A stretch of DNA of 64,000 nucleotides. Source: an uncultured Thermoplasmata archaeon (lineage in GTDB: Archaea; Thermoplasmatota; DTKX01; GCA-020343715). A program made the translations under genes and the position numbers. The notes below the pieces were generated by a model, which saw only the letters and a list, made by a program, of their open reading frames with translations, searched no databases and was not told where the DNA came from. The stretch is taken from assembly GCA_965369625.1 (NCBI GenBank), contig CBDUQW010000002.1, positions 27,708 through 91,707 on the forward strand, given 5' to 3'. Below, piece by piece: positions 1-64,000 of the stretch (the first letter of the stretch is position 1; every line of letters starts with the position of its first letter).

Positions 1-167
1 GACCCACTGGCTCGTACGCTTTACCGGGAGCCTCCCGGGCTCCTCCGGCGACACGGCCCACAGGGCCGTGGGAGGGGGTGTACGGCAGCCCGGAACGGGG
101 GTCGATCCACCCCCAACCCAGGGGGTAGCCAGGGGCGATTATTACCGCTGAAAATACGTCCCTTACC

Positions 168-177
168 TATTTATACA
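168..177 (+). promoter_or_regulatory. Putative archaeal TATA box (ctatttatac) in an AT-rich island upstream of the giant surface protein gene. A GGAGG-like RBS lies at about 251-259 before the ATG at 266.
   Basis: The only AT-rich stretch in the first 260 nt. TTTATA-type motif about 90 nt upstream of the ATG. GGAGGGTGTGAGG lies 7-15 nt before the start. Confidence 0.3.
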
Positions 178-265
178 GGTTGGCTAATGCTATCAAAAGA
201 AGTCTGGGGGCTCCCCTCAGGAGCCCTTGAACAACAGTCCGGGAGCACTTGGAGGGTGTGAGGTC

Positions 266-3200
266 ATGAAGAAAGGTAATATCGAAGGAAGGGAACCAAA
301 GAGCGGACGTAGGATCAAAGGGGTCGGTGCACTGACCGTGTCCGTGGTCCTGTTCATGCTCGTATCGCTGATCATGCCCACCGTGAGCGCAGCTCCCGCC
401 CCGGACCTGTTCGTCGACCCCTTGGACCTGTCCGTGGGACCAGAGCCCCTCGTGGAGGGCGTTCCTGCCACGGTGAGCTTCGTGGTCAACAACATGGGTG
501 ACCAGAGCGCCTTCAGCCTGAACATCTCCCTGTACGACCACGGCGAGCTGGTGGCCGACAAGTGGTTCAGGGATTGCATCATCGGTGAGAACATCACCGA
601 CACCCTCCCCTGGACGCCGCAGGCGGCCGGCACCTACGACCTCACCATCAGGGCCTGGTACGGTCCAGGCTCGACCAAGACCGACCAGAACTGGGATGAC
701 AACAACGGTAGCGTCAGCGTGACCGTGAGGTCGCGACCCGACGTGTACCTGACCTCCTCCGACATCACCCACACCGCCCCCGACCCCGACTACGTGGTCG
801 ACGGGGACCTGGTCACCGTCCGCGCCGTGCTGCACAACGCCGGGACCGCCGACGTGACCTCGTGCAACGTGACCCTCTGGGAGGCCGCCGTGGACGGCGG
901 GGGCGAACGTGTCGCCACGCTGGCCGCCATCACCATCCCAGGCTCCGGCCAGGTAACTGTCAATCTGCCCTGGAACACCACCGGCTTCTCGGGCAAGCGG
1001 AACCTGTACGTCCGCGTCACCGACGTCCTGCCCACCGAGACCGCCTTCGCGAACAACGTGGCGACCATAAGCATAAAGGTCCACACCGTGGAGGACAAGG
1101 TCTTCGACGGCGTGGACAGGGAGATCATCTCGTCCTTCAAGATACAGTTCTTCATCACCGTCAAGGGTGGCGGCACCCTGACGATAACCGACGTCGGCAA
1201 CGCCACGGTCTACCAGGACTACGGCGAGCAGTACGAGATCGAGGTGATGGACACTGGCAAGCTGATAATCGATGGTGGCATCCTCAACGCCGCCATGAAC
1301 TACACCGTTTCGCTTACCGACTCCGCCGAGCTCCATCTGCTCAACGGCGCCGAGTCCAACGTGAGGGTGGTGGCCTCTGGCAATGCCAAGGTCTTCATAC
1401 ATGACAGCACCCTGGACGCGCCCACCATCGAGATGACCGGGGGCGCCCTAACTGCCTCCGGTTCGAACATCACCGCTGGCCGTCTGGACCTCTTCTACAC
1501 CACCGTCGTGGTCGACTCCTCGAGCATCAGGACCGGGGAGACCATACGCATCGTTGGCCAGACCGCCTCGTTCAACGACACCGAGATCAAGGTGGCCCGA
1601 GAGTTCGAGGACATCGTTCTGGCCATCGAGGCCTTCCCGCAGCTGGAGGGCCACGACCCGGACACCAGGGAGGTCGAGATACTGCCCCCGGCACTGGTGG
1701 TCACGGACGGTGCCATGGTGGACCTGCGGAACGTCTCCGTCGATTCCACCATCTACATCACCTCCGAGGAAAGCAGCTACTGGACCTCCAACAGGCTCGA
1801 CGCCGAGGGGCGCACCTCCGTCGTGAACGTGCACAGGTACGTGGTCGTCCAGGTGAGGGACTGGTTCGGCGAGGTCGTGCCGAACGCCGAGGTCCAGGTG
1901 ATGGACTACTTCGACGACATCGTGATCATCAGCGGCACCACCAACCTCACCGGCGACGTGACGCTGGCGGTCAAGACCGACTACGTGACGGCCGCCCAGA
2001 AGCCCTACGTGGGGAACCTCAGGGTGAGGGCCTCCGCCTACGGCAGGAACTCCGACGACGTCTGGTTCGCCCACAGCAAGTACCCCGACATGGACTTCGA
2101 GAGCAACACGTTGTTCGTGGACATCGAGATGCCCCCCAACCCGCACCCGGACATGGGCCTGAGGTACAGGAGGTACGTGACCCCCCACCTGATAAAGAAT
2201 GACGAGTCGAGCATGGACAAGAACATCATCGTCGACAACACCGTGCTCACGCTGTTGAACACCACCTTCACCCTGGAGCAGGAGTTCCCGTACCAGTGGT
2301 ACATACTGATCACCGGCGAGCACGGCACCCTCAGGCTGCAGAACGCCACCATCATGAGCCAGTATCCCTTCAAGATCTACGTGGAGGAGAGCGGGACCCT
2401 CGTCATGAGCGAAGGGTCGGCGCTCCTCGACGTCCGGATCATCGCCAAGGACGATTCCAGCCTCGAGATAGTCGACGGCATCATAATGGGAGGCATCTTC
2501 ACCGAGTGCCAGTCCATCGATATCGCCGGCGCCTCCCGCCTCACGCTCTCCCATACCCACATGGAGGCCACCACTGTCAGCATCACCGGTGGCTATGTCC
2601 ACGAGCAGGCGGACATGTTGATCAAGGCCAACGACGTGATGCTGAGCGGCGTGGAGCTCTCCGCCGACTACGAGATCAGCGACACCGTGGGCGCGGAGGA
2701 CCTTTGGGACATCACCCTCTACTTCGGATGGAGCATCCTCAACGACGAGGAGTACCTCTTGAACATCAGCGCAGGCTTCTTCGACTACTTCGCCGCCGGG
2801 TCCGAGATCACCATCGAGACCTCGAGGCTCAACATCATCGATTCCTTCGTCTACGCGATAGACACCAACATCAAGGTGCGTCGCTCAAGCACGCCCAAGC
2901 AGACGTCCATCGAGGGCAGCTGGATCGGCGGCATCAACCTGACGGTCATCTCCGACGACATGGTGGCCATCGACTCCCACTTCAACAGGGTGCTGGACAA
3001 CTTCTCCGGCACCGACAAGATCCGCCTCGAGAGCGTGGAGGTCCCAGGGATCGTCTGCGAGGGCGAGGCCCTGGTGGAGCGGTACTGGTCCCTGACCGTC
3101 TACGCCTACGACGGCGCCGGGTCCGTGAGGCCCTGGGCCCTCCTGGAGGTGTTCTCCACCGAGACCAACGACAGGGTCTTCCCGCCCACGGGCGAGGAGG

Positions 3201-5425
3201 ACCTGGAATCCAGCCGTACCAATTCAGCAGGCATGATAACCGTCTCGCTCCTGGCCAACGTGACCGACAGCACCGGGGACTACTTCGTGGGCTCCTACTA
3301 CTTCTGGCTGGTCTACGATGGTCCCAACTTCGAGAACGACCCCGCCTACACCGAGACGAAGCAGGTGAACCTCAAGGGGGACAGCGTCTTCGAGGCCCGT
3401 TGGCCCATCGTGATAGCGCCCCTCGAGAAGGATATCATCTACTGCCTCTACACCGCAGAGGAGGCAGGCCCCTCCGTGGACATCAAGATGTACAACCACA
3501 CCTTCTGGTCGGAGGAGGAGGCCGAGCAGTTCCTCAACGAGAGCGCCTACATGTCCTACGACAGGATCAAGTTCAACAGGACCATCATCCGGAACACCAC
3601 CATCAGGATGACCTTCTACGCCTCGGCCAGGGTCAACGAGGTCTGGGAACCCCTCACGGAAGGCACGGTGAAGGTCTACGTGCTGACCACTCCCGACCCC
3701 AACCCCAACCGGCCCGCGACGGACTACAACGGCACGGCCCTCATCTACACCGTAGAGCCCCACCAGTTGGTGGACGGCATGGGGAACATCACGATATCCA
3801 TTCCCAACGGTGTCAGCGTGTACCAGCTGTACATCGCCATCGCTGGTGGTGACTACGACCCGATCTTCGAGCCCATCACCGAGCGGTTCATGGACCTGGA
3901 GGTCAAGCACCCCCAGACCATCCAGATCACCAGCGCCAAGATACAGGAGTATCCCATCCACGTGGGCGATGCGATATCCATCATGGGCTCGGTCAGGTAC
4001 ATCTACACCGACGAGCCCGTCCTCTACGCCGAGATCGAGGTCACCGGGACCTACGTCACCCCCGGACGCGGCCTGACCAACATGGACGGGGGTTTCACCA
4101 TCTCCATGCAGGCGCCGCTGCAGCCCCAGGAGAACGTCTCCCTCGAGATCATCGCGGTGGACCCCATCTCCGACGAGCAGTCCGCAATGATCATCAACTA
4201 CGCCGTCGAACCTCCCTACGAGGCCGAGGATGTGGTAGAATTCCCGTGGGGATGGGTCATCGTCGGTATCATCGCCGCCGTGATCGCCTTCTCCATCGTA
4301 CTGGGCGCGGTCATGATGTACCGCAAGCACTACGGCGAGGTGGTGGAGTGCGGCGAGTGCGGCGCCTTCATACCATCCAGCGCCACCTCGTGCCCCAAGT
4401 GCGGCATCGAGTTCGAGACTGACCTGGCCCGCTGCTCGGAGTGCGAGGCCTGGATACCTGCGAAATCATCCTCTTGCCCCGTGTGTGGAACCCCCTTCAC
4501 CATCCAGTCCCTGGAGGAGGCGGTGGCCATGGAGGAGGCGGAGGAGGACGTGGCCCCCATCGACCAGCTGACCACCTCCACCGCCCAGCTGGCCCCCCTC
4601 ACCCTTGAGGGCTCCACCCAGGCCTCCAAGTGGGGTGACAAGGTGGAGAAGCGCCGCCGCCGCATCAAGAAGCGGGTCAAGAAGCGCCTCACCGTCACCG
4701 ATGCCGAGGGCAACCTGGAGGAGGAGGCCCCCGAGGAGGCGAAGGACCTGTTCGTTGGCGACGAGGGTGATGAGGCGACCCGCCTGCCCGGTCTGGGCGT
4801 GGACGAGTCCATGCTCTCCGACGACGAGCTCTCCAGGCTCCTGCCCACAGAGGACATGCTCAAGGAACTCATGCTGACCAGCGACCAGCCTCCCAGCGAG
4901 GCCGCCCTCGAGGGCGAGGCCGACGAACTGGCCGACGAACTGGCCGACGAGGAGGCTCCCGAGGCGGACGAGGCAGAGGCCGATGCCGATGCTGATGCCG
5001 ATGCCGACGCGATGGAGGCGGGAATGGACCTGGAGGAGATCCCCTCAGAAGAGGGCGAGGTCCCCGAGCCTGACGCCGAGGACCTGGAGGAGATCCCGCC
5101 GCCCGAGGGGGCCGACGACGACCTGGACCTTCCCGAGGACGAGGAGACCATGCCCGGCCTTGGCCAGGTCCCCGACGAGGACAAGCCCGAGGAGGAGATG
5201 TACGAGGGACGCGAGCTGCTCAGCGAGCTGGGCCTGGTCGCCGAGGTGCCCAGCACCGCCGACCGGGATGAGGGAGGGGAACCCGCCGAGGAGGAGTCCC
5301 TCAAGGACCTGCTCACCGAGGAGGGGTCCAAGGAGACCCCCAAGCTCTGCCCCAACTGCGGTGGCAACTGGATCCTCTACAAGGACGGCGAGTACACCTG
5401 TCGCATCTGCGGCGAGAAGTGGTGA
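266..5425 (+). CDS. Giant (about 1719 aa) type I membrane surface protein. It has an N-terminal signal peptide, two CARDB-like domains, beta-helix-like repeats and many N-x-S/T sequons. A single TM segment (WGWVIVGIIAAVIAFSIVLGAVMMY, about nt 4246-4320) is followed by a ~370-aa cytoplasmic tail with three Cys4 zinc ribbons and an acidic low-complexity tract.
   Basis: Long ORF 227..5425 with non-shadow composition. The likely start is ATG 266 (MKKGNIEGREPKSGRRIKGVGALTVSVVLFMLVSLIMPTVSAAPAP, a signal peptide). CARDB-like motifs (VSFVVNNMGDQSA..., VRAVLHNAGTAD...). Zinc ribbons CGECG...CPKCG, CSECE...CPVCG and CPNCG...CRICG. Acidic tract EEAPEADEAEADADADADA. Confidence 0.8.
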   Translation: MKKGNIEGREPKSGRRIKGVGALTVSVVLFMLVSLIMPTVSAAPAPDLFVDPLDLSVGPEPLVEGVPATVSFVVNNMGDQSAFSLNISLYDHGELVADKWFRDCIIGENITDTLPWTPQAAGTYDLTIRAWYGPGSTKTDQNWDDNNGSVSVTVRSRPDVYLTSSDITHTAPDPDYVVDGDLVTVRAVLHNAGTADVTSCNVTLWEAAVDGGGERVATLAAITIPGSGQVTVNLPWNTTGFSGKRNLYVRVTDVLPTETAFANNVATISIKVHTVEDKVFDGVDREIISSFKIQFFITVKGGGTLTITDVGNATVYQDYGEQYEIEVMDTGKLIIDGGILNAAMNYTVSLTDSAELHLLNGAESNVRVVASGNAKVFIHDSTLDAPTIEMTGGALTASGSNITAGRLDLFYTTVVVDSSSIRTGETIRIVGQTASFNDTEIKVAREFEDIVLAIEAFPQLEGHDPDTREVEILPPALVVTDGAMVDLRNVSVDSTIYITSEESSYWTSNRLDAEGRTSVVNVHRYVVVQVRDWFGEVVPNAEVQVMDYFDDIVIISGTTNLTGDVTLAVKTDYVTAAQKPYVGNLRVRASAYGRNSDDVWFAHSKYPDMDFESNTLFVDIEMPPNPHPDMGLRYRRYVTPHLIKNDESSMDKNIIVDNTVLTLLNTTFTLEQEFPYQWYILITGEHGTLRLQNATIMSQYPFKIYVEESGTLVMSEGSALLDVRIIAKDDSSLEIVDGIIMGGIFTECQSIDIAGASRLTLSHTHMEATTVSITGGYVHEQADMLIKANDVMLSGVELSADYEISDTVGAEDLWDITLYFGWSILNDEEYLLNISAGFFDYFAAGSEITIETSRLNIIDSFVYAIDTNIKVRRSSTPKQTSIEGSWIGGINLTVISDDMVAIDSHFNRVLDNFSGTDKIRLESVEVPGIVCEGEALVERYWSLTVYAYDGAGSVRPWALLEVFSTETNDRVFPPTGEEDLESSRTNSAGMITVSLLANVTDSTGDYFVGSYYFWLVYDGPNFENDPAYTETKQVNLKGDSVFEARWPIVIAPLEKDIIYCLYTAEEAGPSVDIKMYNHTFWSEEEAEQFLNESAYMSYDRIKFNRTIIRNTTIRMTFYASARVNEVWEPLTEGTVKVYVLTTPDPNPNRPATDYNGTALIYTVEPHQLVDGMGNITISIPNGVSVYQLYIAIAGGDYDPIFEPITERFMDLEVKHPQTIQITSAKIQEYPIHVGDAISIMGSVRYIYTDEPVLYAEIEVTGTYVTPGRGLTNMDGGFTISMQAPLQPQENVSLEIIAVDPISDEQSAMIINYAVEPPYEAEDVVEFPWGWVIVGIIAAVIAFSIVLGAVMMYRKHYGEVVECGECGAFIPSSATSCPKCGIEFETDLARCSECEAWIPAKSSSCPVCGTPFTIQSLEEAVAMEEAEEDVAPIDQLTTSTAQLAPLTLEGSTQASKWGDKVEKRRRRIKKRVKKRLTVTDAEGNLEEEAPEEAKDLFVGDEGDEATRLPGLGVDESMLSDDELSRLLPTEDMLKELMLTSDQPPSEAALEGEADELADELADEEAPEADEAEADADADADADAMEAGMDLEEIPSEEGEVPEPDAEDLEEIPPPEGADDDLDLPEDEETMPGLGQVPDEDKPEEEMYEGRELLSELGLVAEVPSTADRDEGGEPAEEESLKDLLTEEGSKETPKLCPNCGGNWILYKDGEYTCRICGEKW
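4979..5008 (+). repeat. Hexanucleotide microsatellite (GCCGAT/GCTGAT)x5 encoding (Ala-Asp)n inside the cytoplasmic tail. An adjacent 12-nt direct repeat (gccgacgaactg x2, at 4921-4950) encodes ADELADEL.
   Basis: Direct reading of gccgatgccgatgctgatgccgatgccgac. Confidence 0.8.
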
Positions 5426-6007: not shown

Positions 6008-6910
6008 CTACATCTCGATGTCGGTCTTGATCAAGGCGTAGCCCAGGTCGAAGAACTGCACGTTCTTGATGTCCATGGTGATGAAATCGCCGGAGATGGA
6101 CAGGACGAAGTCGGTGCCCGGCACCAGGCCGGCGTCGATCATGGAGTTGTTGAAGTACCGGGACCACGCGATGGTGTACTCGGTGATCATGGTCAGGTTG
6201 AGCCACTCAGGGGGGTTGAACCGGTGGGATGCGGCGGTGTAGGTCACCAGCTGGGTCTGGAACAGGATGGTGCTGGTGCCCTGTATGGAGGTCTCGATGC
6301 CCGATATTGTGATCTGGACGAAGGTGACCTTGACGACGGGCCCGAACTTCTCCACGGTGAACTGGGGTCCTATGCGCACGATCTCGCCGGCGCCCTGGTT
6401 GAGGATGAGGGCGCCGTTCTCGTAGGCGATCTCCTGGTTGACGTAGTACTGGTTGTTGGAGGTGTACTTCATCCCGCCGGTGGCGGTGATGTTGACCTCC
6501 CCCGACTGGTTCTTGACGTTGCAATAGTACTCCAGCTCGTCGTTGCGGAAGTGGTTGATGGAGAATGTGCCGGACGAGTCGGTGCCGAACATGGCGTAGC
6601 CCTCGGTGCCCAGGGACACAGGGTTGGCCACGCTGAAGGCGGTGTCGCCCTGCAGGATCTGGTTGTCGATGGTGGCCTTGATGTTGCCGAAGTCGGCGGA
6701 GACCTTGTGTATCTGGTTGGCCTCCCTCTTCTCCATCCAGACGGGCATCCAGACCGAGGTGACCATGGTCACCAGCAGGATCACGATGAGGATGGACAGC
6801 ATGATGGCGACCACGCCGGCGGCGGCCTCGTCCTCTTCCCGGAGGTGGCATATCCTCCGTCTGAGGCGTCCTCCGCCGTGTCCAGCAGCCTGTCCCATCG
6901 ACCTGGTCAT
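6008..6910 (-). CDS. Archaeal type IV pilin-like protein (class III signal peptide / Pilin_N-like N-terminus), 300 aa. It is a paralog of the N-terminal 300 aa of the next gene.
   Basis: N-terminus ...EDEAAAGVVAIMLSILIVILLVTMVTSVW has a charged region followed by a hydrophobic helix, typical of archaeal prepilins. Realistic composition, versus Arg/His-rich antisense ORFs on the other strand. It aligns with 6938..8536 (KVSADFGNIKATIDNQILQGDTAF vs KVVNSQFDGMASSIDKQILNGDTKF). Confidence 0.65.
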   Translation of the reverse strand: MTRSMGQAAGHGGGRLRRRICHLREEDEAAAGVVAIMLSILIVILLVTMVTSVWMPVWMEKREANQIHKVSADFGNIKATIDNQILQGDTAFSVANPVSLGTEGYAMFGTDSSGTFSINHFRNDELEYYCNVKNQSGEVNITATGGMKYTSNNQYYVNQEIAYENGALILNQGAGEIVRIGPQFTVEKFGPVVKVTFVQITISGIETSIQGTSTILFQTQLVTYTAASHRFNPPEWLNLTMITEYTIAWSRYFNNSMIDAGLVPGTDFVLSISGDFITMDIKNVQFFDLGYALIKTDIEM

Positions 6911-14207: not shown

Positions 14208-14245
14208 GTCCCTCTTTACGGGAAACACCCCCAAGGAGGGCTCAA

Positions 14246-50845: not shown

Positions 50846-50852
50846 GGGCGCC

Positions 50853-53048: not shown

Positions 53049-53810
53049 GTGGCCCTCTTCGTCGTTCTGGGCCTGGCCGCATGTTGCATGGTCAGCCTTG
53101 GCGAGGACATCGAGGTGCCATACATCCCTGGCGACGGTGACGCCGGTGACGGTGGCAGCGGGGACCCGACGGGGTCCACCGGTACCGAGGTGCCAGCAGA
53201 GCCCGGGGTCCCGACCGTCCCGGGGGACGACGACGACCAGGATGGTCCAGGTCCCCGAGATGGCGGTGACGACGCCGGAGCGTACGACGGCGGAGGGTAC
53301 GACGCCGGAGCGTACGACGGCGGAGGGTACGACGCCGGAGGGTACGACGGCGGAGGGGACGACGGGGGAACATCCAGCCTTCCCGTCGAGACCATCCCCC
53401 GCAAGGGCGCCGACACCTACGATCCCTTCCCCACCTTGGACCCCCTGATAATCGTGGTGATGATCGTGGTGTTCGGGGCGCTGGCCCTCTACGCGCCCGG
53501 CGAGATCCAGCGGATGCGCATCGAGTCCGCCTTCCGCGAATCCCTGGACGCGCGACTTGCCCTGGCCAAGGGCGAGTTCGTGATGGCCCTGGCGGGCTTC
53601 GACCGGGCCATCGAGCAGGCCCATCCCGCCTACACCCGCAGGCTGAGGGTGGACCGGCCCGCCGACTGGACCCTGATGCCCGACGACTTCTACATCTCCC
53701 TATGGCGGGGTCGCGCCTCGGCCCTCAGGGGGATAGGTCGTGAGAAGGCGGCGGTGGCGACGGCCCGCCTCGCCGATGAGCTGGAGGCCGTCGTCCTCAA
53801 CGGACACTGA
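53049..53810 (+). CDS. Secreted/membrane protein (253 aa) with a signal peptide, a Gly/Asp/Tyr-rich repeat region, one TM helix, and a C-terminal alpha-helical domain of unknown function.
   Basis: MALFVVLGLAACCMVSLG. GAYDGGGYDAGAYDGGGYDAGGYDGGGDDGG. TM LIIVVMIVVFGALALY. Confidence 0.5.
   Translation: MALFVVLGLAACCMVSLGEDIEVPYIPGDGDAGDGGSGDPTGSTGTEVPAEPGVPTVPGDDDDQDGPGPRDGGDDAGAYDGGGYDAGAYDGGGYDAGGYDGGGDDGGTSSLPVETIPRKGADTYDPFPTLDPLIIVVMIVVFGALALYAPGEIQRMRIESAFRESLDARLALAKGEFVMALAGFDRAIEQAHPAYTRRLRVDRPADWTLMPDDFYISLWRGRASALRGIGREKAAVATARLADELEAVVLNGH
53277..53366 (+). repeat. 30-bp tandem direct repeat (ggagcgtacgacggcggagggtacgacgcc, about 3 copies, the last degenerate) encoding (GAYDGGGYDA)n.
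   Basis: Read directly from the sequence. Copies at 53277-53306, 53307-53336 and 53337-53366. Confidence 0.8.
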
Positions 53811-53920
53811 GCACTACTGTTCGCCGTCACCCTCGGGGCCCCACGGGTCAACCAAAGCCTTATACGCACTACAGGGAATCCACGGCAGGCCTTGTCCGTA
53901 GTGGGACCAAGGGTGATGGC

Positions 53921-55957: not shown

Positions 55958-55971
55958 GCCTGGACGTGGCG

Positions 55972-57441
55972 TTATTCTCGTATGGCCCTGGGCGAGAACA
56001 GCAGCAGGCACCCCAATATCTCGAGCCGACCCACCCACATCAGGAAGGCCAGCACGATCTTCGACAGCGCGGGCAGGTGGGCGAAGTTCTCCGCCGGCCC
56101 CACGTCGCCCAGGCCGGGCCCGACGTTGCTTATGGCGGTGACGGAGGCCGAGGCCGCTGTGACCAGGTCGGCGCCCTGCATGGCGAGGATGAGCATCCCT
56201 CCCGCGGCGAGGCCCAGGTAGAGCATCACGTAGGCGGCGGTGTTGGCCACCTGCCCGTCGTCGATGGTCACCTTGCCCAGCTTGACGTGGAACACGCCCC
56301 GACGATGGGTGGCGCGGTAGAACAGCACCCTGATGCTCTTGAGGATGATGAGCATCCTCAGCATCTTGATGGAGCCGCCGGTGGAGCCCAGGGTGCCTCC
56401 GAAGAACATCAGGAACAGCAGGATGAGCTGGCTGCCGAGGGGCCAGAGGTCGTAGTTCGCCGTGGCGTACCCCGTGGTCGTCGTTATCGAGATGACCTGG
56501 AAGGAGGCGAACCGAACGCTGTCGCCCAGGGAGTAGATGCCCCGGACGGCCAGGTCGCCGGTGATGAACAGGATGCCGAAGGCAATGATGAGCACGGCGA
56601 AGCGGAACTCTGGGTCCTTGAGGTACATGCGCCACTTGCCGCGCAGGACGTGGAAGTGGAGCACGAAGGAGGTCCCGCTGATGAAGGTGAAGGTCATGAT
56701 GGTCAGCTCGATGGCCGGGTTGTGCCAGTAGGCGATGGACGCATCGTGGGTGGAGAACCCTCCCGTGGGCAGGGTGGTGAAGGCGTGGTTGATGGCGTCG
56801 AAGGCCCCCATGCCCAGGAACAGCAGGATCAGGGCCTCCACCGCGGTGAACAGGACGTAGATGCCCCAGAGGAGGCGGGCGGTCTGGGCCATCCGGGGCG
56901 CCATCCGGGTCACCCTGTCACCGGGGACCTCCGCCTGCATCAGGAGGGGGTTGGCGCGGCCACCGAAGAACCGGGACAGGATGGCCACCGACAGCACGAT
57001 GACGCCCATCCCTCCCAGCCACTCGGTCAGCGAGCGCCAGAGCAGGATGCTCTTGGGCATGGTGTCCAGGCCGCTGAGGACCGTGGAGCCGGTCGTTGTG
57101 AAGCCCGACATGGACTCGAAGAAGGCGTCGACCCAGCCGCTGGTGAGGCTTCCCGGGATGACCACCATGTAGGGGATGATCCCGATGATGGCAAGCATCA
57201 GCCAGGCCACCGCCACGAGCACCATCGCCTCGGTGGTCCGGAGCTGCTCGTACTGGCGCTTCATGATGAGACGGAGGCCCAGGCCTCCCACGAAGGAGAT
57301 GATGAGGGGGATGCCGTAGGCCTGGAACAGCAATGCCCGGTCCTCGTTGAAGTACACCCCTGCCATGATGGGCAGGACGTAGGCGAAGGACATGCCCATG
57401 AGTACGAGGCCCAGCCCGTCCGCGATGACCCTGAACCGCAT
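55972..57441 (-). CDS. trkH: TrkH/KtrB-family K+ uptake transporter subunit (about 489 aa from ATG 57441).
   Basis: MRFRVIADGLGLVLMGMSFAYVLPIMAGVYF. Repeated M1-P-M2 units with selectivity-filter Gly motifs (TTTGYAT, GFSTHD, TTTGSTV-like). The 6-frame ORF extends to 57570, but the first 43 aa lack a TM segment or signal. Confidence 0.85.
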   Translation of the reverse strand: MRFRVIADGLGLVLMGMSFAYVLPIMAGVYFNEDRALLFQAYGIPLIISFVGGLGLRLIMKRQYEQLRTTEAMVLVAVAWLMLAIIGIIPYMVVIPGSLTSGWVDAFFESMSGFTTTGSTVLSGLDTMPKSILLWRSLTEWLGGMGVIVLSVAILSRFFGGRANPLLMQAEVPGDRVTRMAPRMAQTARLLWGIYVLFTAVEALILLFLGMGAFDAINHAFTTLPTGGFSTHDASIAYWHNPAIELTIMTFTFISGTSFVLHFHVLRGKWRMYLKDPEFRFAVLIIAFGILFITGDLAVRGIYSLGDSVRFASFQVISITTTTGYATANYDLWPLGSQLILLFLMFFGGTLGSTGGSIKMLRMLIILKSIRVLFYRATHRRGVFHVKLGKVTIDDGQVANTAAYVMLYLGLAAGGMLILAMQGADLVTAASASVTAISNVGPGLGDVGPAENFAHLPALSKIVLAFLMWVGRLEILGCLLLFSPRAIRE

Positions 57442-57615
57442 GTGTCCCACCCGATCGAACGCCGTTCCACCCTTGCTGGCGGAAAACCGCCAGCAGACCT
57501 CCAGAGGGGGCCTGGTATCCGGGCGAGCGATGCGAATGCCCCCATAAATACATTGCGAACAGGCTTCCAACGGCTGGAATCAACGTCTCCGGAACCCTCT
57601 TTACACCCCGCTGCG

Positions 57616-58839
57616 ATGGGGGTTCCGATGACCCCTGGCAACACCCTCGACGTGGCCGTGGTGGGAGCCGGTCCCATGGGTTCCCGCACCGCAGAGCTGC
57701 TGGCAAGGGCCGGCCTGGACGTGGTGGTGGTCGAGGAGCACGGGGAGGTGGGCCGCCCGGTGGCGTGCGCTGGCCTCCTCTCGAACAGGGTGTCCGAGCT
57801 GCTGGGTGAGGAGATTGCCGTCCTGAACCGTGCCAACGGTGCCCGCCTCCACGCGCCATCGGGCCACGTGGTGGCCTTCGACGCGGGGGGTCCCCGTGCC
57901 CAGGTGGTCGACCGGGCGGCCTTCGACCAGGCCCTGGCCCGCAAGGCCGTGGCCGCGGGAGCCCGCCTGGACATGGAAAGGCGTGTGCTCGAGGTCAGGG
58001 CCAGCTCCTCCGGGTGTGCCCTCGTGGTCCGGGACCTGGCCACCGCAGGGAACGCCAGGGAGGAGGTCCGATGCAGGGTCGTGGTGGGGGCCGACGGCCC
58101 CTCGTCCCTGGTGCGGCGCTCGGTGGGCATCCAGCGTCCCAGGCGCAAGCTGACGGGCTACCAGGTGGCCTTCGCATCCCCTGGGCCCATCGACACCGCT
58201 GTCGTGGACCTGTACGCGGGCCACGACGTGGCCCCCGGCTTCTTCGCGTGGGTCGTCCCCCACGACGACCACTCCGGCCTCGTGGGTCTGGCCCAGGAGC
58301 CTGGAGGAATGTCGCCGAAGGCCCGTCTGGAGGCCTTCATGGAGGGACCGGTCTTCAAGGGGGCGTTCCCCGATGTCCAGCCCCTCGCCACCTTCGCGGG
58401 CACCATCCCCATCGGCCCCATCAACAAGCCCGTCGCGGACGGCGTGGTCCTGGTGGGCGACGCCGCCGCCCAGGTGAAGGCGACCTCGGGGGGAGGCGTC
58501 TTCCCTGGCCTGGTGGCGGCCAAGCACGCCTCCGAGGCCATCGTGGACGCCCTGGGGAAGGGGGACCCCACGGCCCGGGCCCTCATGGCCTACCCCAAGG
58601 CCTTCGACAGGGAGGTGGGAGCGGAACTCCGGAAGGCGGCCCGCCTGCGGAGGTCGTTCGGGGTGATGTCAGACCGGATGGTCGACGACCTGATCGAGGC
58701 CCTGGACGACCCGGAGCTCCTGGACCTCATCGTCACCGAGGGGGACATCGAGTTCCCCTCCCGGCTCCTCCGGTCCCTCCTCCGGAAGTCCCCCCGCCTC
58801 GTCCGCATCGCCGGTCCCCTCTTCAGGGGCTTCTTCTGA
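57616..58839 (+). CDS. Geranylgeranyl reductase family FAD-dependent oxidoreductase (e.g. digeranylgeranylglycerophospholipid reductase), 407 aa.
   Basis: MGVPMTPGNTLDVAVVGAGPMGSRTAELLARAGLDVVVVEE (FAD Rossmann GxGxxG). GADGPSSLVRR and GDAAAQVKATSGGGV motifs are typical of GGR. The long 6-frame ORF 55966..58839 upstream of 57616 is antisense to trkH. Confidence 0.8.
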   Translation: MGVPMTPGNTLDVAVVGAGPMGSRTAELLARAGLDVVVVEEHGEVGRPVACAGLLSNRVSELLGEEIAVLNRANGARLHAPSGHVVAFDAGGPRAQVVDRAAFDQALARKAVAAGARLDMERRVLEVRASSSGCALVVRDLATAGNAREEVRCRVVVGADGPSSLVRRSVGIQRPRRKLTGYQVAFASPGPIDTAVVDLYAGHDVAPGFFAWVVPHDDHSGLVGLAQEPGGMSPKARLEAFMEGPVFKGAFPDVQPLATFAGTIPIGPINKPVADGVVLVGDAAAQVKATSGGGVFPGLVAAKHASEAIVDALGKGDPTARALMAYPKAFDREVGAELRKAARLRRSFGVMSDRMVDDLIEALDDPELLDLIVTEGDIEFPSRLLRSLLRKSPRLVRIAGPLFRGFF

Positions 58840-60189
58840 ACCGTCTCCGATGGTATCCGCGTCCACCCCGTGGTCCGGGATGTCGTCCTCCACGTTGCGG
58901 ATGCTCTTGACGAAGTAGGCCAGGAGGCCGATCACGATACCGATGATCCCTATGATGAAGATCATCAGGCCCATCCCCGCCCCGGGCCCCGACCCGAAGA
59001 GGACCTCCAGGGGCCCTGTGGCGTCCTCCATGAAGGGCTCGAAGACCTTGTCCGCCAGGGGGCCAGCGATCATCAGGGCGGGGCCCTGGCCCACCAATGC
59101 GATGAAGAACCGGGCCGAGAACACCCTGCCCTGGAGGTCGGGGGGGACCTTGGACTGCCAGATGGACTGGCTCGCGGCGAAGACCAGGGGTCCTAAGACC
59201 GAGAAGATGAACACCCCCACCGCCCATCCGGGGATCCACACGTCCAATCCCAGGATGAGGGCGCCCACGAACGAGAGGGTCAGTCCGATGATGAGACCCT
59301 TGATCTTGCGCTTGAACCCTCCCCATATGGAGACGACGGCGCCACCGACGATGCCTCCCATGCCGCCTATCAACATGACCGTCCCGAGGATGACCTCGTT
59401 GTTGCCTGTCTTCACCAGGATCATCGGCTGCATCAGCACCCATGCCATCACCCCGACGAAGTTGGAAGCGGCGAAGGTCAGCAGCAGCCCCAGCAGGCCC
59501 TTCCGGGCCCTGATGTAGCGGAAGCCGAATGTGAGGTCGGCCTTCCAGTCGGCCTGGGCCTCCTTCCCCTCCTCGGACCTCTTGGGCTCGGGTATCGGGA
59601 TGACGAGCAACGTGCCGATGGCCACGAAGAAGGTGATGATGTCGATGACGAGGATGCCACCGAGGCCTATGGGCCCGATGAGGACGGCGGCGGTGATGGG
59701 TGCCATCATCTCCGATATCGACCAGCCAAGGGAGATCAGGCCGCTGGCCCTGCCGTAGTGCTTCTTGGGGACCAGCAGGGTCGTGGCTGCGGAGAGGGCG
59801 GGGAACTGGAAGGCCCGGAAGACATCCCCGAAGGCCAGGAGCACCAGGATGTAGATGAACTCCAGGTTGTCCGTCATGTACAGGACGAGTATCCCGAAGG
59901 TCGAGGCCGCCGCGATGGCGTCGGTGATGGCCATTATCCATTTGCGGCTGTAGCGGTCGACGATGACGCCGGCCAGCGGGGCGAGGACGACCGAGGGCCC
60001 GAAGGCGGCCAGGAAGAGCAGCGAGACCGATGTGACCTCGCCCGTCTCCTCGAAGATCCAGACCATGATGGCGAACATGGTCATCCCCGAGCCGAGGATG
60101 GAGGCGACCTGGCCCGACCAGATGACGAGGTAGTTCCGCATCTCGCCAACTGCCTTGAGCTTAGAGCGGAATCCATCGCCTTCGGTCAT
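58669..60189 (-). CDS. MFS transporter (12 TM helices) with an about 80-aa acidic C-terminal tail.
   Basis: Typical MFS topology. The 3' end (58669-58839) overlaps the 3' end of the convergent geranylgeranyl reductase gene by about 170 nt. Confidence 0.75.
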   Translation of the reverse strand: MTEGDGFRSKLKAVGEMRNYLVIWSGQVASILGSGMTMFAIMVWIFEETGEVTSVSLLFLAAFGPSVVLAPLAGVIVDRYSRKWIMAITDAIAAASTFGILVLYMTDNLEFIYILVLLAFGDVFRAFQFPALSAATTLLVPKKHYGRASGLISLGWSISEMMAPITAAVLIGPIGLGGILVIDIITFFVAIGTLLVIPIPEPKRSEEGKEAQADWKADLTFGFRYIRARKGLLGLLLTFAASNFVGVMAWVLMQPMILVKTGNNEVILGTVMLIGGMGGIVGGAVVSIWGGFKRKIKGLIIGLTLSFVGALILGLDVWIPGWAVGVFIFSVLGPLVFAASQSIWQSKVPPDLQGRVFSARFFIALVGQGPALMIAGPLADKVFEPFMEDATGPLEVLFGSGPGAGMGLMIFIIGIIGIVIGLLAYFVKSIRNVEDDIPDHGVDADTIGDGSEEAPEEGTGDADEAGGLPEEGPEEPGGELDVPLGDDEVQELRVVQGLDQVVDHPV

Positions 60190-60270: not shown

Positions 60271-61644
60271 TCAGGCGTCATCGTCCTCGAGGTCGTCGTC
60301 CTCGGCCTCCTGGTCGGCCCTGATGTCCTCGAGCCGCTGCCGCGCCAGCCGCTTCCGCTGCTGGTACTTGCCCGACCAGTACTGGAGCCCCTTCTTGAGC
60401 CGGGGGTACTGGTCCCCGTGCTCCTCGGCCAGGTAGAACACCACCGCCAGCACGCCCAGGATGATGCACAGGGTGATGAGGGTCGCCAGGGGCCAGAGGG
60501 GCACCGGGTCCTTGACGGAGAAGGAGGAGTCGGGAACGATGCCCGCGGTACCCAGCTGGTAGTACAGGTTGGTGTAGTCGAAGCCCTCCCACTGGTCCCA
60601 GGTGTAGTAGCCACGGGATTCCATGACGAAGGTCTCGTTCTCGTAGACGAACTCGATGCGGTGGCGCACGAAGTAGGTGCCCTTGGGCGTGTCCTCCTCC
60701 GTGGCGATGTCAAGCCGCACGGGCTCATTACCGCCCGGCGGGATGTCCGGCAGGAGGATCCTGTTGACGGGCTCCCCGATCCCATCGATGACGGGCACCG
60801 GGCCATCAAGGTCCTCGATGGGCTTGGACTCCTCGATGGTCGCCCACATGTAGAACTCCACCGTGACGAACACATCCGTGATGGTCATGTTGTAGCGGTT
60901 GGTGACGGTGAAGTTGTACCTGCCCATCTCCCCGGGCCTGATGACGGGGGTGGTGAAGTCGCCGAAGTCGGGGACCAGGTTGGGCATTTGCACGTACGTG
61001 AAATGCTCGGGGACGACGGTGAAGCCCGCCTCGGACACCAGGTAGTCGGTGCCGTTGGGATCCTCGCCGCTGCGGACCAGCTCGATGTTGTCAGCCCACT
61101 TCTGCTGGGTGAAGTGTCCCATAGACAACGCCTTTTCACCGACGGCGGTTAGGTCCAGGGAGACACGAATCCGGTAGTAACCGTGGTCCGCATCTTCCGG
61201 AACCACGACCTTCGGCAAGGTGATATCGATGGCGAGGTCGTTTTTCCATTCCTTGGTCGTCGTCCAGGAGAGCGATTCCACGGTCACGTTCAGACCCGGG
61301 GAGAAGAAGCTGAACTTGGGTGGAGGCCCATCGAGCTCATCGAGTTCCTTCTCCAGTCCGTACTCGCCCCATCGATAGATCTCGACAGTGATGTTGATAA
61401 CATCCTCCTTGTCATCCGACGAATTGATGATGAACCCAAAGAGGGTGACCTTCAGGATGTCGAACTCACCCACGGTCCCCACCTCGAAGGTCTCGTTCTT
61501 GAACATCACCACGGGATGGGTGTCGTCATCGCCGTACAGGTCCGCCGGCACCCGCGGGTCGATGCCGCCGTCCGAGAGGGCCACGAGGGGAAGGAACGCC
61601 ATGGCGAGGAGGAAGATGGCGACCGAAATAGAGGGGACCCTCAT
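60271..61644 (-). CDS. Type I membrane surface protein (about 458 aa from ATG 61644). Signal peptide, N-glycosylation sequons, C-terminal TM anchor and an acidic cytoplasmic tail.
   Basis: MRVPSISVAIFLLAMAFLPLVALS. NETF, NFTV, NMTI and NETF sequons. TM LWPLATLITLCIILGVLAVVFYL. Tail ...EAEDDDLEDDDA. Confidence 0.6.
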   Translation of the reverse strand: MRVPSISVAIFLLAMAFLPLVALSDGGIDPRVPADLYGDDDTHPVVMFKNETFEVGTVGEFDILKVTLFGFIINSSDDKEDVINITVEIYRWGEYGLEKELDELDGPPPKFSFFSPGLNVTVESLSWTTTKEWKNDLAIDITLPKVVVPEDADHGYYRIRVSLDLTAVGEKALSMGHFTQQKWADNIELVRSGEDPNGTDYLVSEAGFTVVPEHFTYVQMPNLVPDFGDFTTPVIRPGEMGRYNFTVTNRYNMTITDVFVTVEFYMWATIEESKPIEDLDGPVPVIDGIGEPVNRILLPDIPPGGNEPVRLDIATEEDTPKGTYFVRHRIEFVYENETFVMESRGYYTWDQWEGFDYTNLYYQLGTAGIVPDSSFSVKDPVPLWPLATLITLCIILGVLAVVFYLAEEHGDQYPRLKKGLQYWSGKYQQRKRLARQRLEDIRADQEAEDDDLEDDDA

Positions 61645-61866: not shown

Positions 61867-62229
61867 ATGACTTCCCCCAATAAAGCGATCCGGGAAGTGC
61901 TGAACGAGCTTCGCAGCCTTGGCGAGGTCACCAACGCGGCCGTCGTCTCGCGGAGCGGGATGCTCATCGACGGGGACGCCCCGGACCACCTCCACATGGA
62001 GACCTTCGGCGCCATGATGGCGATCATGCTCGGTGCCGCCGAGACGGCCACCGCCGACTCCATCGACCCCCTCAAGCACATCGACGTGGAGCTGACCAAC
62101 TCCCACCTCATCATCACGGGAGCGGGGCAGCGGATCCTTCTGGCCTGCTTCATCTCCGACAAGGCCGCCATGCCCGAGGTGCTGCCCTTCGTCGAGGAGG
62201 CCGCGAAGCGCCTCAAGACCCTCGTGTGA
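61867..62229 (+). CDS. Roadblock/LC7 (MglB-like) domain protein, about 120 aa.
   Basis: AIREVLNELRSLGEVTNAAVVSRSGMLIDGDAPD...FGAMMAIMLGAAETA...IDVELTNSHLIITGAGQRILLAC is the classic Roadblock fold signature. ATG at 61867 within the 6-frame ORF 61777..62229. Confidence 0.75.
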   Translation: MTSPNKAIREVLNELRSLGEVTNAAVVSRSGMLIDGDAPDHLHMETFGAMMAIMLGAAETATADSIDPLKHIDVELTNSHLIITGAGQRILLACFISDKAAMPEVLPFVEEAAKRLKTLV

Positions 62230-62314
62230 GGTCATGCCGTGGGCTGTTCATTCTCTTGACCGTGCACCGTGGGTGCCGCTCGTGCCGCTCCCCCGTGTTA
62301 CCGACCGTCCTACC

Positions 62315-64000
62315 CTACCGGCGCCTGCGCCGGAAGGAGACCAGCAGGGCGATGGTGGCGATGGCCAGCATGGCCATGGTCCATCCGCCGGGCGTGTCCT
62401 CCGTCTTGTACTGGGCCACGTCGGGGCTGGTCCCCGAATTGCCATCTCCCGCGCTGGGACCGCCGGCGTCGTTGCCGAAGGAGTCCTTGCCTCGGAAGTA
62501 GTACGTGTGCTCGCCCTTGACCATGGTCGTCTCGTAGGTGAACTCCTGACCGTCGGTGGTGTCGGTGTCGGCGGGGTCCGCCGTCATGAGGATGCTATCG
62601 CCGTCGATGACCACCCAGACCTCGCCGTTGTCCCCGTCGGGGTCGGTGAAGGTCACGGTGAAGGTGAACTTGGTCTTCGTGGTCCCCTTGGCCGGACCCA
62701 GGTCGCCCAGCCGCAGGGTCGGGGCCTGGTTCTTGGAGAAGATGTCCACCTCCAGGACGTCCGAGGCGGTGTTGCCCGCCACGTCGGTCACGGTGAGGGT
62801 CACCTCGACGACGACGACGTCGGGGAAGGTGTAGGTGGCCGTCTCGCCGTCCAGCACCACATCGGTGCCGTCGAGGGTGAAGGTCCACTTCCACTCCACG
62901 ATGCCCCGGTTGTCCGCAGAGGCGGAGCCGTCGAAGGTGATCTCGTCCTCCTCGATGTTGGTGATATCGTCACCCGCCGCGGGGACGGGGTCCTCGGTGT
63001 CGAGGATGACGGTGACGCCGGAGGAGTCATCGCCCATGTTGCCCGCCAGGTCGGTGGCGCGTAGGGTGATGACGTTCTCACCCTCGCTCAGGTCGAACTC
63101 GAACTCCCATGCGCCGCCCTCGCCGGCGACCACGGTGCCCTCCTGGGCGTCTCCCACCAGGATGGTGACGGTGGAGCCGATCTCGGCGGTGCCGGAGACG
63201 GTGATGGTGGCCACGTTGGTGTACTCCGGGACCTCGTCCATCCCGGGGACGTCGGGGGCGATGGAGTCGAAGGCGACGCTCAAGGGCAGGGACAGATCGC
63301 CGGTGTTCAGCGACTCGTCGGTTGCCCATGCGGTCATCACGTTCACTCCCTGGTCCTCGAGGGTCAGCTCGAACTCCCAGGTGCCGTCGGGGTCGGTGTA
63401 GGTGGTGCCCACCTCCTCGTCGTTGACGAAGATGGTGATCATGGACCCCGCCTCGGCGGTGCCGGTCAGGGCATGGACCGCCTCGTTGGTCAGCTCGGGC
63501 AGCGTCCCGAGGACCGGGGCGTCGGGAGCCGTGACATCGAGGGTCATCACCTCGAGGACCTGCGAGTACGGCGATTCGTTGGGCACCTCGTCGAAGGCTG
63601 TCAGGACGAAGTAGTAGAACGTCTCGCTGTCCAGGTCCGTGACGTCGAAGGTCGTGGTCGTCAACCCGGCCACGGGCGACAGCTGCGTCCACGGGCCGGC
63701 CCAGTCGTTGCCTATGTAGAGGTGGTAGCCCTCCAGGTCCACGTCCTCGTTGGCGTTCCACTCCAGGGTGATGGAGTCGCCAGCGACGCTGAATGCCTGG
63801 AAGCCCGTGGGTGCCAGGGGCGACTTGCCGTCGACGTGGATCACGCTGACGACCGCCGTCATCGGTGACATGAGGGGCACCTCGTCCCAGGCCGCGACCT
63901 TGAAGCTGTACTCCGTGCCGTGGACCAGGCCGGTGTCTATGGCGTGCAGGTTGGTGGTTAAGTCTCCGAGCAGGACCCAGTCGCCTGCGCCCTGGTCCCA
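62315..64000 (-). CDS. Fibronectin-III/Ig-domain surface protein with a C-terminal TM anchor and an RRRRR tail. It is 5'-partial: the reading frame continues past the window end.
   Basis: Fn3 strands (SPLAPTGFQAFSVAGDSITLEWNANEDVDLEGYHLYIG...FYYFVLTAFDE). The frame stays open upstream of the listed GTG at 63880 and encodes ...GLVHGTEYSFKVAAWDE. C-terminal GWTMAMLAIATIALLVSFRRRRR. Confidence 0.7.
   Translation of the reverse strand, partial: WDQGAGDWVLLGDLTTNLHAIDTGLVHGTEYSFKVAAWDEVPLMSPMTAVVSVIHVDGKSPLAPTGFQAFSVAGDSITLEWNANEDVDLEGYHLYIGNDWAGPWTQLSPVAGLTTTTFDVTDLDSETFYYFVLTAFDEVPNESPYSQVLEVMTLDVTAPDAPVLGTLPELTNEAVHALTGTAEAGSMITIFVNDEEVGTTYTDPDGTWEFELTLEDQGVNVMTAWATDESLNTGDLSLPLSVAFDSIAPDVPGMDEVPEYTNVATITVSGTAEIGSTVTILVGDAQEGTVVAGEGGAWEFEFDLSEGENVITLRATDLAGNMGDDSSGVTVILDTEDPVPAAGDDITNIEEDEITFDGSASADNRGIVEWKWTFTLDGTDVVLDGETATYTFPDVVVVEVTLTVTDVAGNTASDVLEVDIFSKNQAPTLRLGDLGPAKGTTKTKFTFTVTFTDPDGDNGEVWVVIDGDSILMTADPADTDTTDGQEFTYETTMVKGEHTYYFRGKDSFGNDAGGPSAGDGNSGTSPDVAQYKTEDTPGGWTMAMLAIATIALLVSFRRRRR

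Follow-up and report, generated by a model that had tools for sequence, protein, structure and literature searches.

Giant surface-protein genes in a probably conserved core-chromosome neighbourhood of an uncultured Thermoplasmata archaeon

We analysed a 64-kb window (contig CBDUQW010000002.1; 65% GC) from the genome of an uncultured Thermoplasmata archaeon, in which genes for giant surface proteins stand among ordinary core genes. The window holds 186 open reading frames (ORFs) of at least 100 aa, with frequent overlap between the two strands, and a frame filter based on GC content at third and second codon positions (GC3/GC2), combined with domain searches, left about 35 real genes. Thirteen of these have products that are exported and stay attached to the membrane through a C-terminal anchor or a pilin-type N-terminal signal: surfA, the pilin-like genes pilB, pilC and pilD, the four paralogues par1 to par4, surf_wHTH, an S8 subtilase, bhelix_surf, TM493 and Ig_surf. 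Together they span 36.1 kb, or 56% of the window, and eight of the products exceed 1000 aa (1719, 1090, 1042, 1052, 1058, ~1043-1050, 1257 and 1081 aa). We consider it likely that this is a vertically inherited surface-gene neighbourhood of the core chromosome, conserved in relatives, and not a genomic island.

An earlier note on this DNA had listed 12 surface or membrane-anchored genes, several above 1000 aa and together covering about half of the 64 kb. All 12 proved to be real coding frames where the note had placed them, with GC3 values of 0.75-0.94, Pfam matches or orthologues, and two high-confidence AlphaFold2 (AF2) models among them, and they alone account for 33.6 kb (52.5%); the S8 subtilase (40248-42758), which has a C-terminal transmembrane (TM) segment, had been missed as the thirteenth. 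The cytoplasmic features described there were likewise recovered, namely zinc ribbons in surfA, a double winged helix-turn-helix (wHTH) in the product of 31899-35672, and acidic tails in surfA and TM493. Sec-type signal peptides were recognized in surfA (..VSA/A), surf_wHTH (..TSA/A), bhelix_surf (..AHA/A), par1-4 and TM493, the hydrophobic leaders of the last five being similar to the AxA-type signals of the first three. The products of surfA (at about residue 1331), par1-4, surf_wHTH (about residue 1068), bhelix_surf, TM493 and Ig_surf each have one hydrophobic anchor towards the C-terminus. None of 10 surface proteins matched an archaeosortase signal (PGF-CTERM or other CTERM models) at E ≤ 0.01, and no S-layer family of Pfam or NCBIfam was matched among the surface proteins.

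One crude gene caller and classifier was run on the window and on all comparison loci. Surface genes made up 56% of the bases in the window, 16.6% in 10 non-syntenic Thermoplasmata loci and 7.1% in 13 other archaeal loci, and genes of at least 1000 aa numbered 8 of 35, 6 of 168 and 4 of 249, respectively. For these long genes the Fisher P value was 5e-4 against the Thermoplasmata loci and 9e-6 against the other archaeal loci; for surface-like genes it was 1e-5 and 1e-7. The enrichment of the window in surface genes is beyond chance. The window also lies far above the published archaeal background, in which about 18% of ordinary genes encode TM proteins and about 2% signal-peptide proteins (PMC4158269). 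The surface genes are spread over at least seven separate transcription units, interleaved with housekeeping genes.

Gene order was compared in seven related loci, each of which reproduces a part of the order in the window: L046 and L047 (JGI contigs), L048, L049, L051 (a 137-kb ENA contig from the closest long relative), L052 and L103. A scan of species-representative genomes with the seryl-tRNA synthetase (SerRS) of the window found Thermoplasmata metagenome-assembled genomes (MAGs) to be nearest, with two cold-seep MAGs 80% identical and other Thermoplasmata 51-59%. A published MAG survey leaves one relative, GCA_020343715, unclassified within Thermoplasmata. The order in L051 is two FtsZ genes ... 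surfA-pilB-pilC-pilD-SepF-SerRS-S3Ae; in L046 and L047 it is Fer4-par4-par3-par2-par1-unk417-S3Ae-SerRS-SepF-pilD-pilC-pilB; in L048, L049 and L103 it is LonB-AlaX-S8-rSAM-AspDH-Ras-unkTM-wHTH-AOR-Fer4-par array; and in L052 it is epim2-...-ClC-TrkH-GGR-MFS-TM493-Roadblock. The orthologue clusters of surfA, surf_wHTH and par list longest contigs of equal length (92,483 and 110,917 bp for all three, 102,631 bp for surfA and surf_wHTH, 120,590 bp for surf_wHTH and par), as would be expected if they share contigs, and the linkage was confirmed directly for the 120,590- and 110,917-bp contigs. Housekeeping proteins are 65-94% identical in the relatives and surface proteins 42-74% (par 42-54%, surf_wHTH 50-52%, TM493 53%, surfA 61%, pilC 56-69%, pilD 69-74%), the ectodomains diverging about twice as fast as adjacent housekeeping proteins. 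Since the order is kept while the surface sequences diverge, these genes appear to be old, fixed in place and fast-evolving.

The distant complete Thermoplasmata genome CP070808.1 carries its surfA and surf_wHTH orthologues 390 kb apart, each amid other large exported proteins that are unrelated to those of the window (S8/CARDB proteases of 1384 and 900 aa, a 1152-aa Kelch/PKD protein, CARDB proteins and a 1668-aa protein). Two remnants were noticed there. L102:15315-15893 (minus strand), which follows surfA, matches only residues 109-300 of pilB (77% identity), and L050:16065-16349 (plus strand), which follows Fer4-AOR, matches only residues 16-110 of par4 (46%). These remnants too lie 390 kb apart, so that the ~22 kb that intervene in the window, including the essential SerRS, S3Ae and SepF genes, must lie elsewhere; either rearrangement breakpoints fell inside surface genes or the MAG is misassembled at these places.

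The surfA gene (266..5425, plus strand) encodes a protein of 1719 aa with a Sec signal peptide, a TM segment and a cytoplasmic tail. Its ectodomain comprises two CARDB/immunoglobulin (Ig) domains, two right-handed beta-helix domains and beta-sandwiches, and its tail runs from a double zinc ribbon (DZR) through a basic KRRRRIKKRVKKR patch and a long acidic disordered stretch to a C-terminal zinc ribbon (CPNCG..CRICG). Over 17 orthologues the identity is 85% in the double zinc ribbon, 85% in the KRRRRIKKRVKKR patch, 34% in the acidic stretch, 94% in the terminal ribbon and 49% in the ectodomain. The surf_wHTH gene (31899..35672, minus strand), delimited by its Pfam domains, start-codon choice and orthologues, encodes 1257 aa that begin with a signal peptide and continue with an ectodomain of ~1030 aa (two NPCBM_assoc domains, CARDB and other Ig-like domains), the TM segment and two cytoplasmic winged helices, HTH_HVO_0163_N (45.6 bits) and a MarR-like HTH_24 (53.3 bits). 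The same architecture is found in all 18 full-length orthologues, among which the TM and wHTH module is 85-94% identical and the ectodomain 51%. The closest PDB sequences to the winged helices are the small archaeal wHTH proteins 5duk and 1ub9.

When the 198-aa module of TM, HTH_HVO_0163_N and HTH_24 was searched against 1.84 billion representatives, 5,722 clusters (defined at 50% identity) were matched at E ≤ 1e-3 and 609 at E ≤ 1e-30. The matching proteins are up to 1,568 aa long and carry the module at their C-terminus or close to it, and the ectodomains of eight sampled proteins vary, with NosD/beta-helix, seven PKD, seven Big_7 with CARDB, FG-GAP, NPCBM_assoc and He_PIG/Big_9 domains represented. 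Judged by these matches, the TM and double-wHTH unit is a widespread modular anchor, carried by thousands of archaeal-type surface proteins, that joins adhesin-like ectodomains to a cytoplasmic tail of predicted DNA-binding type, and archaea may commonly signal across the membrane in this way. A literature search found no experimental work on the class, HVO_0163 being named only in an acetylome list. The cytoplasmic modules of surfA and surf_wHTH are far more constrained than their ectodomains, and they therefore probably pass surface events on to the cell interior or couple the ectodomain to a partner in the cytoplasm. Transmembrane signalling, which the earlier note had proposed more broadly, is accordingly plausible for these two proteins (modules 85-94% identical, ectodomains 49-51%). 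Both would be bitopic transducers, displaying winged helices, or zinc ribbons and a basic patch, to the cytoplasm. For the surf_wHTH tail, DNA binding, proteolytic release and mere docking to a cytoplasmic partner may all be considered as candidate modes.

The par operon (16763-29478, minus strand) begins with par4 (26326..29478; 1050 aa, or ~1043 aa from M8 at 29457), continues with par3 (23160..26336; 1058 aa, of par1-like architecture and with weak Big_3_5, PKD and Big_9 matches) and par2 (19888..23046; ~1052 aa from M24 at 23046, the ORF being open to 23115), and ends with par1 (16763..19891; 1042 aa). M8 and M24 are probably the true starts of par4 and par2, and a TATA box, TTATAAAT, lies ~25 nt ahead of the second ATG of par4. 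The par2 stop overlaps the par1 start by 4 nt, and par4 and par3 overlap by 11 nt. The par1 product consists of a signal peptide, a right-handed beta-helix of ~570 aa (~29% Gly), an fn3 domain, three cadherin/Big_9-like domains and a C-terminal TM segment. The beta-helix is predicted by an AF2 model of par1 with a predicted local distance difference test (pLDDT) score of 87.6, the second such model among the surface proteins scoring 86.9, and it is assigned to par2-4 by homology. Its consensus in the family is five to six glycine-rich repeats of ~75 aa (GGxGGDAGDGG...GGGGGGYSGGGGG...VxGxVGxGGDA; ~29-32% Gly in the region). Residues 600-1000 of par1 form one fn3 and three cadherin-like domains ahead of the TM segment, and the A1 profile matched only cadherin and fn3 chains in the PDB.

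Four of the six par pairs are ~34-36% identical over their full length (par1-par2 34%, par3-par4 35%), and the par1-par3 and par2-par3 alignments extend over only ~310-360 residues at 36-40% identity. In all relatives seen, the par genes are matched one to one by positional orthologues in unchanged order, with identities of 45-49% for par2, 50% for par3 (in L046) and 54% for par4. Because the paralogues have diverged to this extent, keep their order 1:1 in relatives and overlap at two of three junctions (par4/par3 and par2/par1), they are best read as co-expressed, non-redundant partners, and their products perhaps assemble into a hetero-oligomeric spike. The family drew 124 database matches, all unnamed or from Thermoplasmata/Thermoplasmatota MAGs, several cluster representatives sharing the same longest contig. 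With its glycine-rich beta-helix head and cadherin-like stalk, always encoded four in a row, it may supply the main structure that these cells expose. As a side observation, the gene at the par4 position of L103, from a third related lineage (L103:10001-13070), is split into ORFs of 915 and 135 aa, by a frameshift, pseudogene formation or sequencing error, and the other three paralogues are intact. A viral origin of the beta-helix genes was also considered and rejected, as par1 had no tblastn match in 50,697 phage records.

The pilin-like operon (6008-11836, minus strand) opens with pilD (8564..11836; 1090 aa), which has a TATA-like TATTTATA element ~60 nt upstream and combines a Pilin_N domain (PF07790; 50.3 bits against a cutoff of 25.2) with an ectodomain of ~1000 aa. 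The pilD N-terminus, MLWKRxGDDA/VSEVVGNLLILVITV, is conserved among relatives, and its orthologues are 69-80% identical. The next gene, pilC (6938..8536; 532 aa), has a pilin-like signal, DUF7289 and a C-terminal Laminin_G_3 domain, a ConA-like lectin (69.7 bits in Pfam), with orthologues 56-69% identical. The last gene, pilB (6008..6910; 300 aa), carries a class III-type signal and DUF7289 and shares 50% identity with the first 300 aa of pilC; its motif RxDEDA/AAGVV and the hydrophobic helix are kept in orthologues. Pilin_N was not matched by pilB or pilC, both of which show only DUF7289 and an analogous charged-then-hydrophobic N-terminus. We also observed that cell-division genes bracket surfA and the pil operon, possibly by coincidence: two FtsZ paralogues (L051:7190-9651) lie directly upstream of the surfA orthologue, and SepF (12071-12451 of the window) lies just past the pil operon.

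The remaining four surface genes stand singly. The S8 subtilase gene (plus strand) encodes 836 aa with a signal peptide, a TM segment at residues 784-802 and a basic tail (Peptidase_S8, 135 bits), and an 833-aa orthologue that is 69% identical lies at the matching position in relatives. The product of bhelix_surf (46527..49772, minus strand; 1081 aa) has a signal peptide, a right-handed beta-helix, Big_13, three Ig-like Glucodextran_B domains, a TM segment and a Pro/acid-rich tail, supported by Pfam (Beta_helix, Big_13 and three Glucodextran_B matches) and by the NCBIfam model Ca_tandemer. TM493 (60271..61644, minus strand) encodes 457 aa from M37, with a signal peptide, an ectodomain of ~380 aa, a TM segment and a basic then acidic tail; it has no Pfam or NCBIfam match, and its orthologue at the matching position in L052 is 53% identical. 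Ig_surf (62315..64000, minus strand) encodes more than 560 aa, its N-terminus lying beyond the end of the window, with fn3, Big_6, Big_13 and PKD domains, a TM segment and RRRRR; its end, ..TPGGW-TM-RRRRR, loosely resembles PGF-CTERM and matches no sorting-signal model. At the corresponding place L052 encodes a 1902-aa protein (L052:10882-16590, plus strand) with an N-terminal zinc ribbon (MAKCPKCGTDNPPGSNECSNCG) and C-terminal TPR-like repeats.

Around these genes lies a set of core genes, most of them assigned from Pfam. SepF (minus strand) is followed by a methanogen-type SerRS (12605-14140, plus strand), S3Ae with an HHH tail (14246-15235, plus strand) and unk417, a conserved protein without assigned function that is kept in relatives (15269-16522, minus strand); the genes of 12071..16522 are 76-94% identical, in unchanged order, in relatives. 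The S3Ae protein has 329 aa, with a C-terminal HHH_5 domain (residues 278-328) fused to the usual ~195-aa domain, and the extension is present in relatives as well (329-339 aa). The SerRS is of the rare methanogen type with a tRNA_bind_4 N-terminal domain, and its relatives come from Thermoplasmata, Methanoperedens, Thorarchaeota, Undinarchaeota and Ignisphaera MAGs, from which it follows that this type is spread more widely than the methanogens. A 4Fe-4S ferredoxin (29578-30036, plus strand; 152 aa), identified by the Fer4 and AOR pair in relatives, precedes an aldehyde:ferredoxin oxidoreductase (AOR; ~30033-31877, plus strand; AFOR_N/C). The 755-aa AOR ORF (29535-31877, plus strand) is misleading, its first ~140 codons overlapping the ferredoxin gene in another frame; relatives have a Fer4 protein of 152 aa and an AOR of 609 aa, and the AOR proper begins near 30033 in the window.

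Between surf_wHTH and the subtilase, in an order unchanged in relatives (35931..40228), are genes for a conserved multi-TM protein (35931-37571, plus strand; 546 aa), a Ras-like small GTPase (37584-38144, minus strand), aspartate dehydrogenase (38157-38993, minus strand) and a radical SAM protein (39050-~40228, minus strand). The 546-aa membrane protein, which has no family match, is hydrophobic at about residues 25-43, 60-78, 104-122 and 229-257 and contains two similar cytoplasmic repeats. Its pairing with the GTPase is retained in relatives, and a Roadblock gene lies 24 kb off; Roadblock-like repeats in this protein were considered and rejected, as BLASTP against the Roadblock protein of the window gave E 0.8 and Pfam at E ≤ 5 gave nothing. 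Past the subtilase come an AlaX-like editing protein (43006-43731, minus strand), the LonB protease (43910-45955, plus strand) and a nicotinamide mononucleotide (NMN) adenylyltransferase-like protein (45978-46484, plus strand). The region 49811..60189, assigned from Pfam and ORF inspection, encodes two NAD-dependent sugar epimerases/dehydratases, two small membrane proteins, a ClC channel, TrkH, a geranylgeranyl-reductase-like FAD protein (GGR; ~57655-58839, plus strand) and an MFS protein; a Roadblock/LC7 gene (61777-62229) stands beside TM493. The GGR gene (plus strand, ending at 58839) and the MFS gene (minus strand, ending at 58669) overlap convergently by ~171 nt, and a similar overlap of ~165 nt is present in L052 (6087-7268 and 8660-7104). 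The window has only three short tandem repeats, all intragenic. One of these, at 53269-53369 (15/30 nt; 6.7 copies of 15 nt), lies within a small gene (53049-53810, plus strand) whose product has an N-terminal hydrophobic segment with a lipobox-like LAAC/C and one internal TM segment, and of which only the C-terminal half is conserved in L052 (61%).

How should this concentration of giant surface genes be explained? Long spurious ORFs are common in DNA of 65% GC, and the 186 ORFs of the window with their many antisense overlaps could in principle have been mistaken for giant genes. The chosen frames, however, show the coding GC3/GC2 signature and domain matches, have full-length orthologues in public data and yield confident structure models, and an artefact, already refuted by these findings, can be dismissed for practical purposes. 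The earlier note had instead taken the window for a cell-surface island, for example of a symbiont or biofilm-former. An acquired or variable island of this kind would fit the 56% of bases in surface genes, the GC3 of par1-4 below that of their neighbours, the replacement of Ig_surf at the right edge in L052, and the dispersed and twice truncated genes of the distant relative. Yet no tRNA or tmRNA gene and no Rfam family was found in the window, no integrase or transposase appeared among the Pfam matches of its proteins, and there are no flanking repeats; GC runs between 0.60 and 0.70 without a step and tetranucleotide distance is flat, so that the compositional boundaries expected of an island are absent. 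Nor does the block come and go among the relatives compared, a set that did not extend to genomes of the same species or genus: some 20 core genes stand between the surface genes, and the same order of both is kept in all seven related loci, representing at least four lineages with ~80% housekeeping identity. GC3 is 0.87-0.97 in most genes of the window and 0.81-0.86 in four short non-surface genes, and its sole sustained dip is at par1-4 (0.75-0.83, the lowest GC3 there; other surface genes 0.87-0.97). This dip is shared by L046 and not by L047, which indicates weak, drifting codon bias and not foreign origin; the par genes, moreover, are 1:1 positional orthologues, and par1 has no phage match. 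The proposed symbiont or biofilm lifestyle found no support, a related complete genome being 2.28 Mb and not reduced. The island reading is thus largely refuted already, and we regard it as very improbable.

Conversely, the window might simply be typical of a clade whose genomes are full of giant surface proteins, a lineage trait that the earlier note had said comparable density throughout the genome would indicate. The Thermoplasmata loci do carry 2.3 times the surface-gene share of the other archaeal loci (16.6% against 7.1%), and the same classifier assigns 32% and 48% of the two CP070808.1 loci to surface genes; both loci, however, were picked around a surface gene and are therefore biased. 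The 10 kb to the left of surfA in L051 contain 12 genes and not one surface gene (two FtsZ, SecE, Spt5, L11/L1/L10/L12 and an MFS transporter among them), and the window keeps up its 56% for 64 kb, 3.4 times the average share in the non-syntenic Thermoplasmata loci. That the clade is equally dense everywhere, with nothing concentrated locally, is therefore unlikely; the evidence at hand suggests that the lineage tends to have many such genes and that they are also concentrated, in a conserved manner, at this place. A high density of giant surface genes need not mean an acquired island; here it appears to belong to old, syntenic core chromosome, and, for the envelope genes of this uncultured archaeal clade, it shows conservation of position to be a different matter from conservation of sequence.

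For the inherited neighbourhood that we favour, any single functional assignment carries much lower confidence than this descriptive core. The surface proteins would be exported by Sec, the three pilin-like ones being processed by prepilin peptidase, and all would stay on the outer face of the membrane, where they would act as adhesins or as polymer-binding, possibly polymer-cleaving, proteins in attachment to particles, polymers or other cells. The pilin-like trio, one member of which bears a lectin domain, would be anchored or assembled through the type IV pilin pathway, and selection at the surface by ligands or viruses may drive the fast divergence of the ectodomains. A chiefly structural role, in which the proteins together make up an S-layer or a glycocalyx-like envelope around a wall-less archaeon and neither adhere nor signal, would explain why position is conserved, as expected of essential envelope parts, and a lattice or spike could be built from the four co-expressed par paralogues; it is well established, too, that several archaeal S-layer proteins are large, beta-rich and held by a C-terminal TM segment. 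On the other hand, no S-layer family model matches, the ectodomains evolve quickly, the par genes have the weakest codon bias of the window, unlike typical highly expressed S-layer genes, and the lectin domain, the protease and the adhesin-like beta-helices point to external ligands, so that we consider an envelope function of this sort unlikely. A more ambitious joint reading takes the large adhesin-like ectodomain, TM segment and tandem wHTH (at least 5,700 clusters, with beta-helix, PKD, Big_7, FG-GAP and CARDB domains) as a major class of archaeal membrane-tethered transcription factors that turn surface contact into regulation, the zinc tail of surfA as a second such transducer, and the four-paralogue par operon as a clade-specific hetero-oligomeric spike; this we put forward tentatively, as possible but doubtful.

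Several points weigh against the account given here. The compared loci cover ~0.3-46.0 and ~51-62.3 kb, with the stretch from the NMN adenylyltransferase-like gene through bhelix_surf to the first epimerase gene (46-51 kb) falling outside them, and gene order does break once, after Roadblock, where L052 has its zinc-ribbon/TPR protein in place of Ig_surf. The genome-wide density contrast rests on the 10-kb flank of one relative and on loci of other species, and the assignment of signal peptides and TM segments depends on hydropathy and inspection, not on a trained predictor. As to function, the adhesive or polymer-binding role on the outer face is inferred from sequence and predicted fold, and the beta-helix fold serves adhesins, enzymes and structural (S-layer-like) proteins, so that fold alone does not separate these roles. 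DNA binding by the surf_wHTH pair is assumed from family resemblance. Finally, neither an assembly ATPase (PilB/FlaI-like), a platform protein (PilC/FlaJ-like) nor a prepilin peptidase is encoded within the window or within 10 kb of the operons in the relatives, although pilus assembly machinery could be encoded elsewhere.

The findings overturn no current knowledge: lineage-specific archaeal surface-protein clusters, beta-helix adhesins, pilin-like proteins and bitopic regulators are known kinds, and it is the particular families present here that are uncharacterised. The window resembles the archaeal 'dark matter islands' in being a stretch rich in fast-evolving, poorly annotated secreted and membrane proteins, some of them pilin-like. 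Such islands (Makarova et al. 2014, PMC4158269) are recognized by their rare genes, by rapid rearrangement and by horizontal mobility, whereas the surface genes of the window alternate with core genes in an order that related lineages share. Planktonic and sediment Thermoplasmatota, in particular Marine Group II/Poseidoniales, have been inferred from their genomes (archaellum operons, thrombospondin and flotillin genes) to invest in adhesion and in polymer and peptide degradation (PMC6461757), a likeness in general strategy; the families of the window (the par array, surfA and the TM-wHTH protein) differ and are restricted to another high-GC Thermoplasmata clade.

The beta-helix heads of surfA (two), par1 (from its AF2 model), par2-4 (from homology) and bhelix_surf, carried on Ig, fn3 or cadherin-like stalks with a single TM segment, are adhesin-like. 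They have the right-handed parallel beta-helix in common with the bacterial TpsA adhesins (HMW1, FHA, EtpA and HxuA) and with autotransporter passengers (pertactin, Vag8, UpaB and Ag43), but no sequence relationship to them (5-16% identity), and no two-partner secretion (TPS) domain or autotransporter family of Pfam or NCBIfam was matched among the surface proteins. Archaea have no outer membrane, and the archaeal proteins, type I membrane proteins with a Sec signal and a C-terminal TM segment, have no TpsB partner or beta-barrel translocator; the par helix, furthermore, is built from unusual glycine-rich repeats of ~75 aa. The relation is one of analogy in fold, not of membership. Polysaccharide lyases, epimerases and phage tailspikes share the beta-helix fold, and the archaeal proteins may have an enzymatic role.

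The pil genes show the likeness to archaeal type IV pilin-like proteins with a class III signal that would be expected from Pilin_N in pilD, DUF7289 in pilB and pilC, and their shared operon; minor and major pilin sets often share one operon. Unlike structural pilins, however, pilD is far larger, at 1090 aa, and has no assembly genes nearby. Judged from these sequence features, the trio may be pilin-signal-anchored surface proteins or, given the lectin end of pilC, tip adhesins, rather than fibre subunits.

The closest parallel to surf_wHTH is with the bacterial bitopic one-component regulators ToxR, CadC and TcpP, in which an extracytoplasmic domain, a single TM segment and a cytoplasmic winged-helix domain of DNA-binding type are likewise joined in one polypeptide. 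The orientation is opposite, the wHTH of surf_wHTH being C-terminal, after a cleaved signal peptide, and that of ToxR N-terminal. In place of the OmpR-like domain of ToxR and CadC, surf_wHTH has a tandem pair, MarR/ArsR-like and HTH_HVO_0163_N, and its ectodomain consists of ~1000 aa of Ig-like, adhesin-type modules. Trans_reg_C, the N-terminal OmpR-type winged helix, has no Pfam match in surf_wHTH, and the protein is therefore to be regarded as an analogue of ToxR and CadC, and not as a member of their family.

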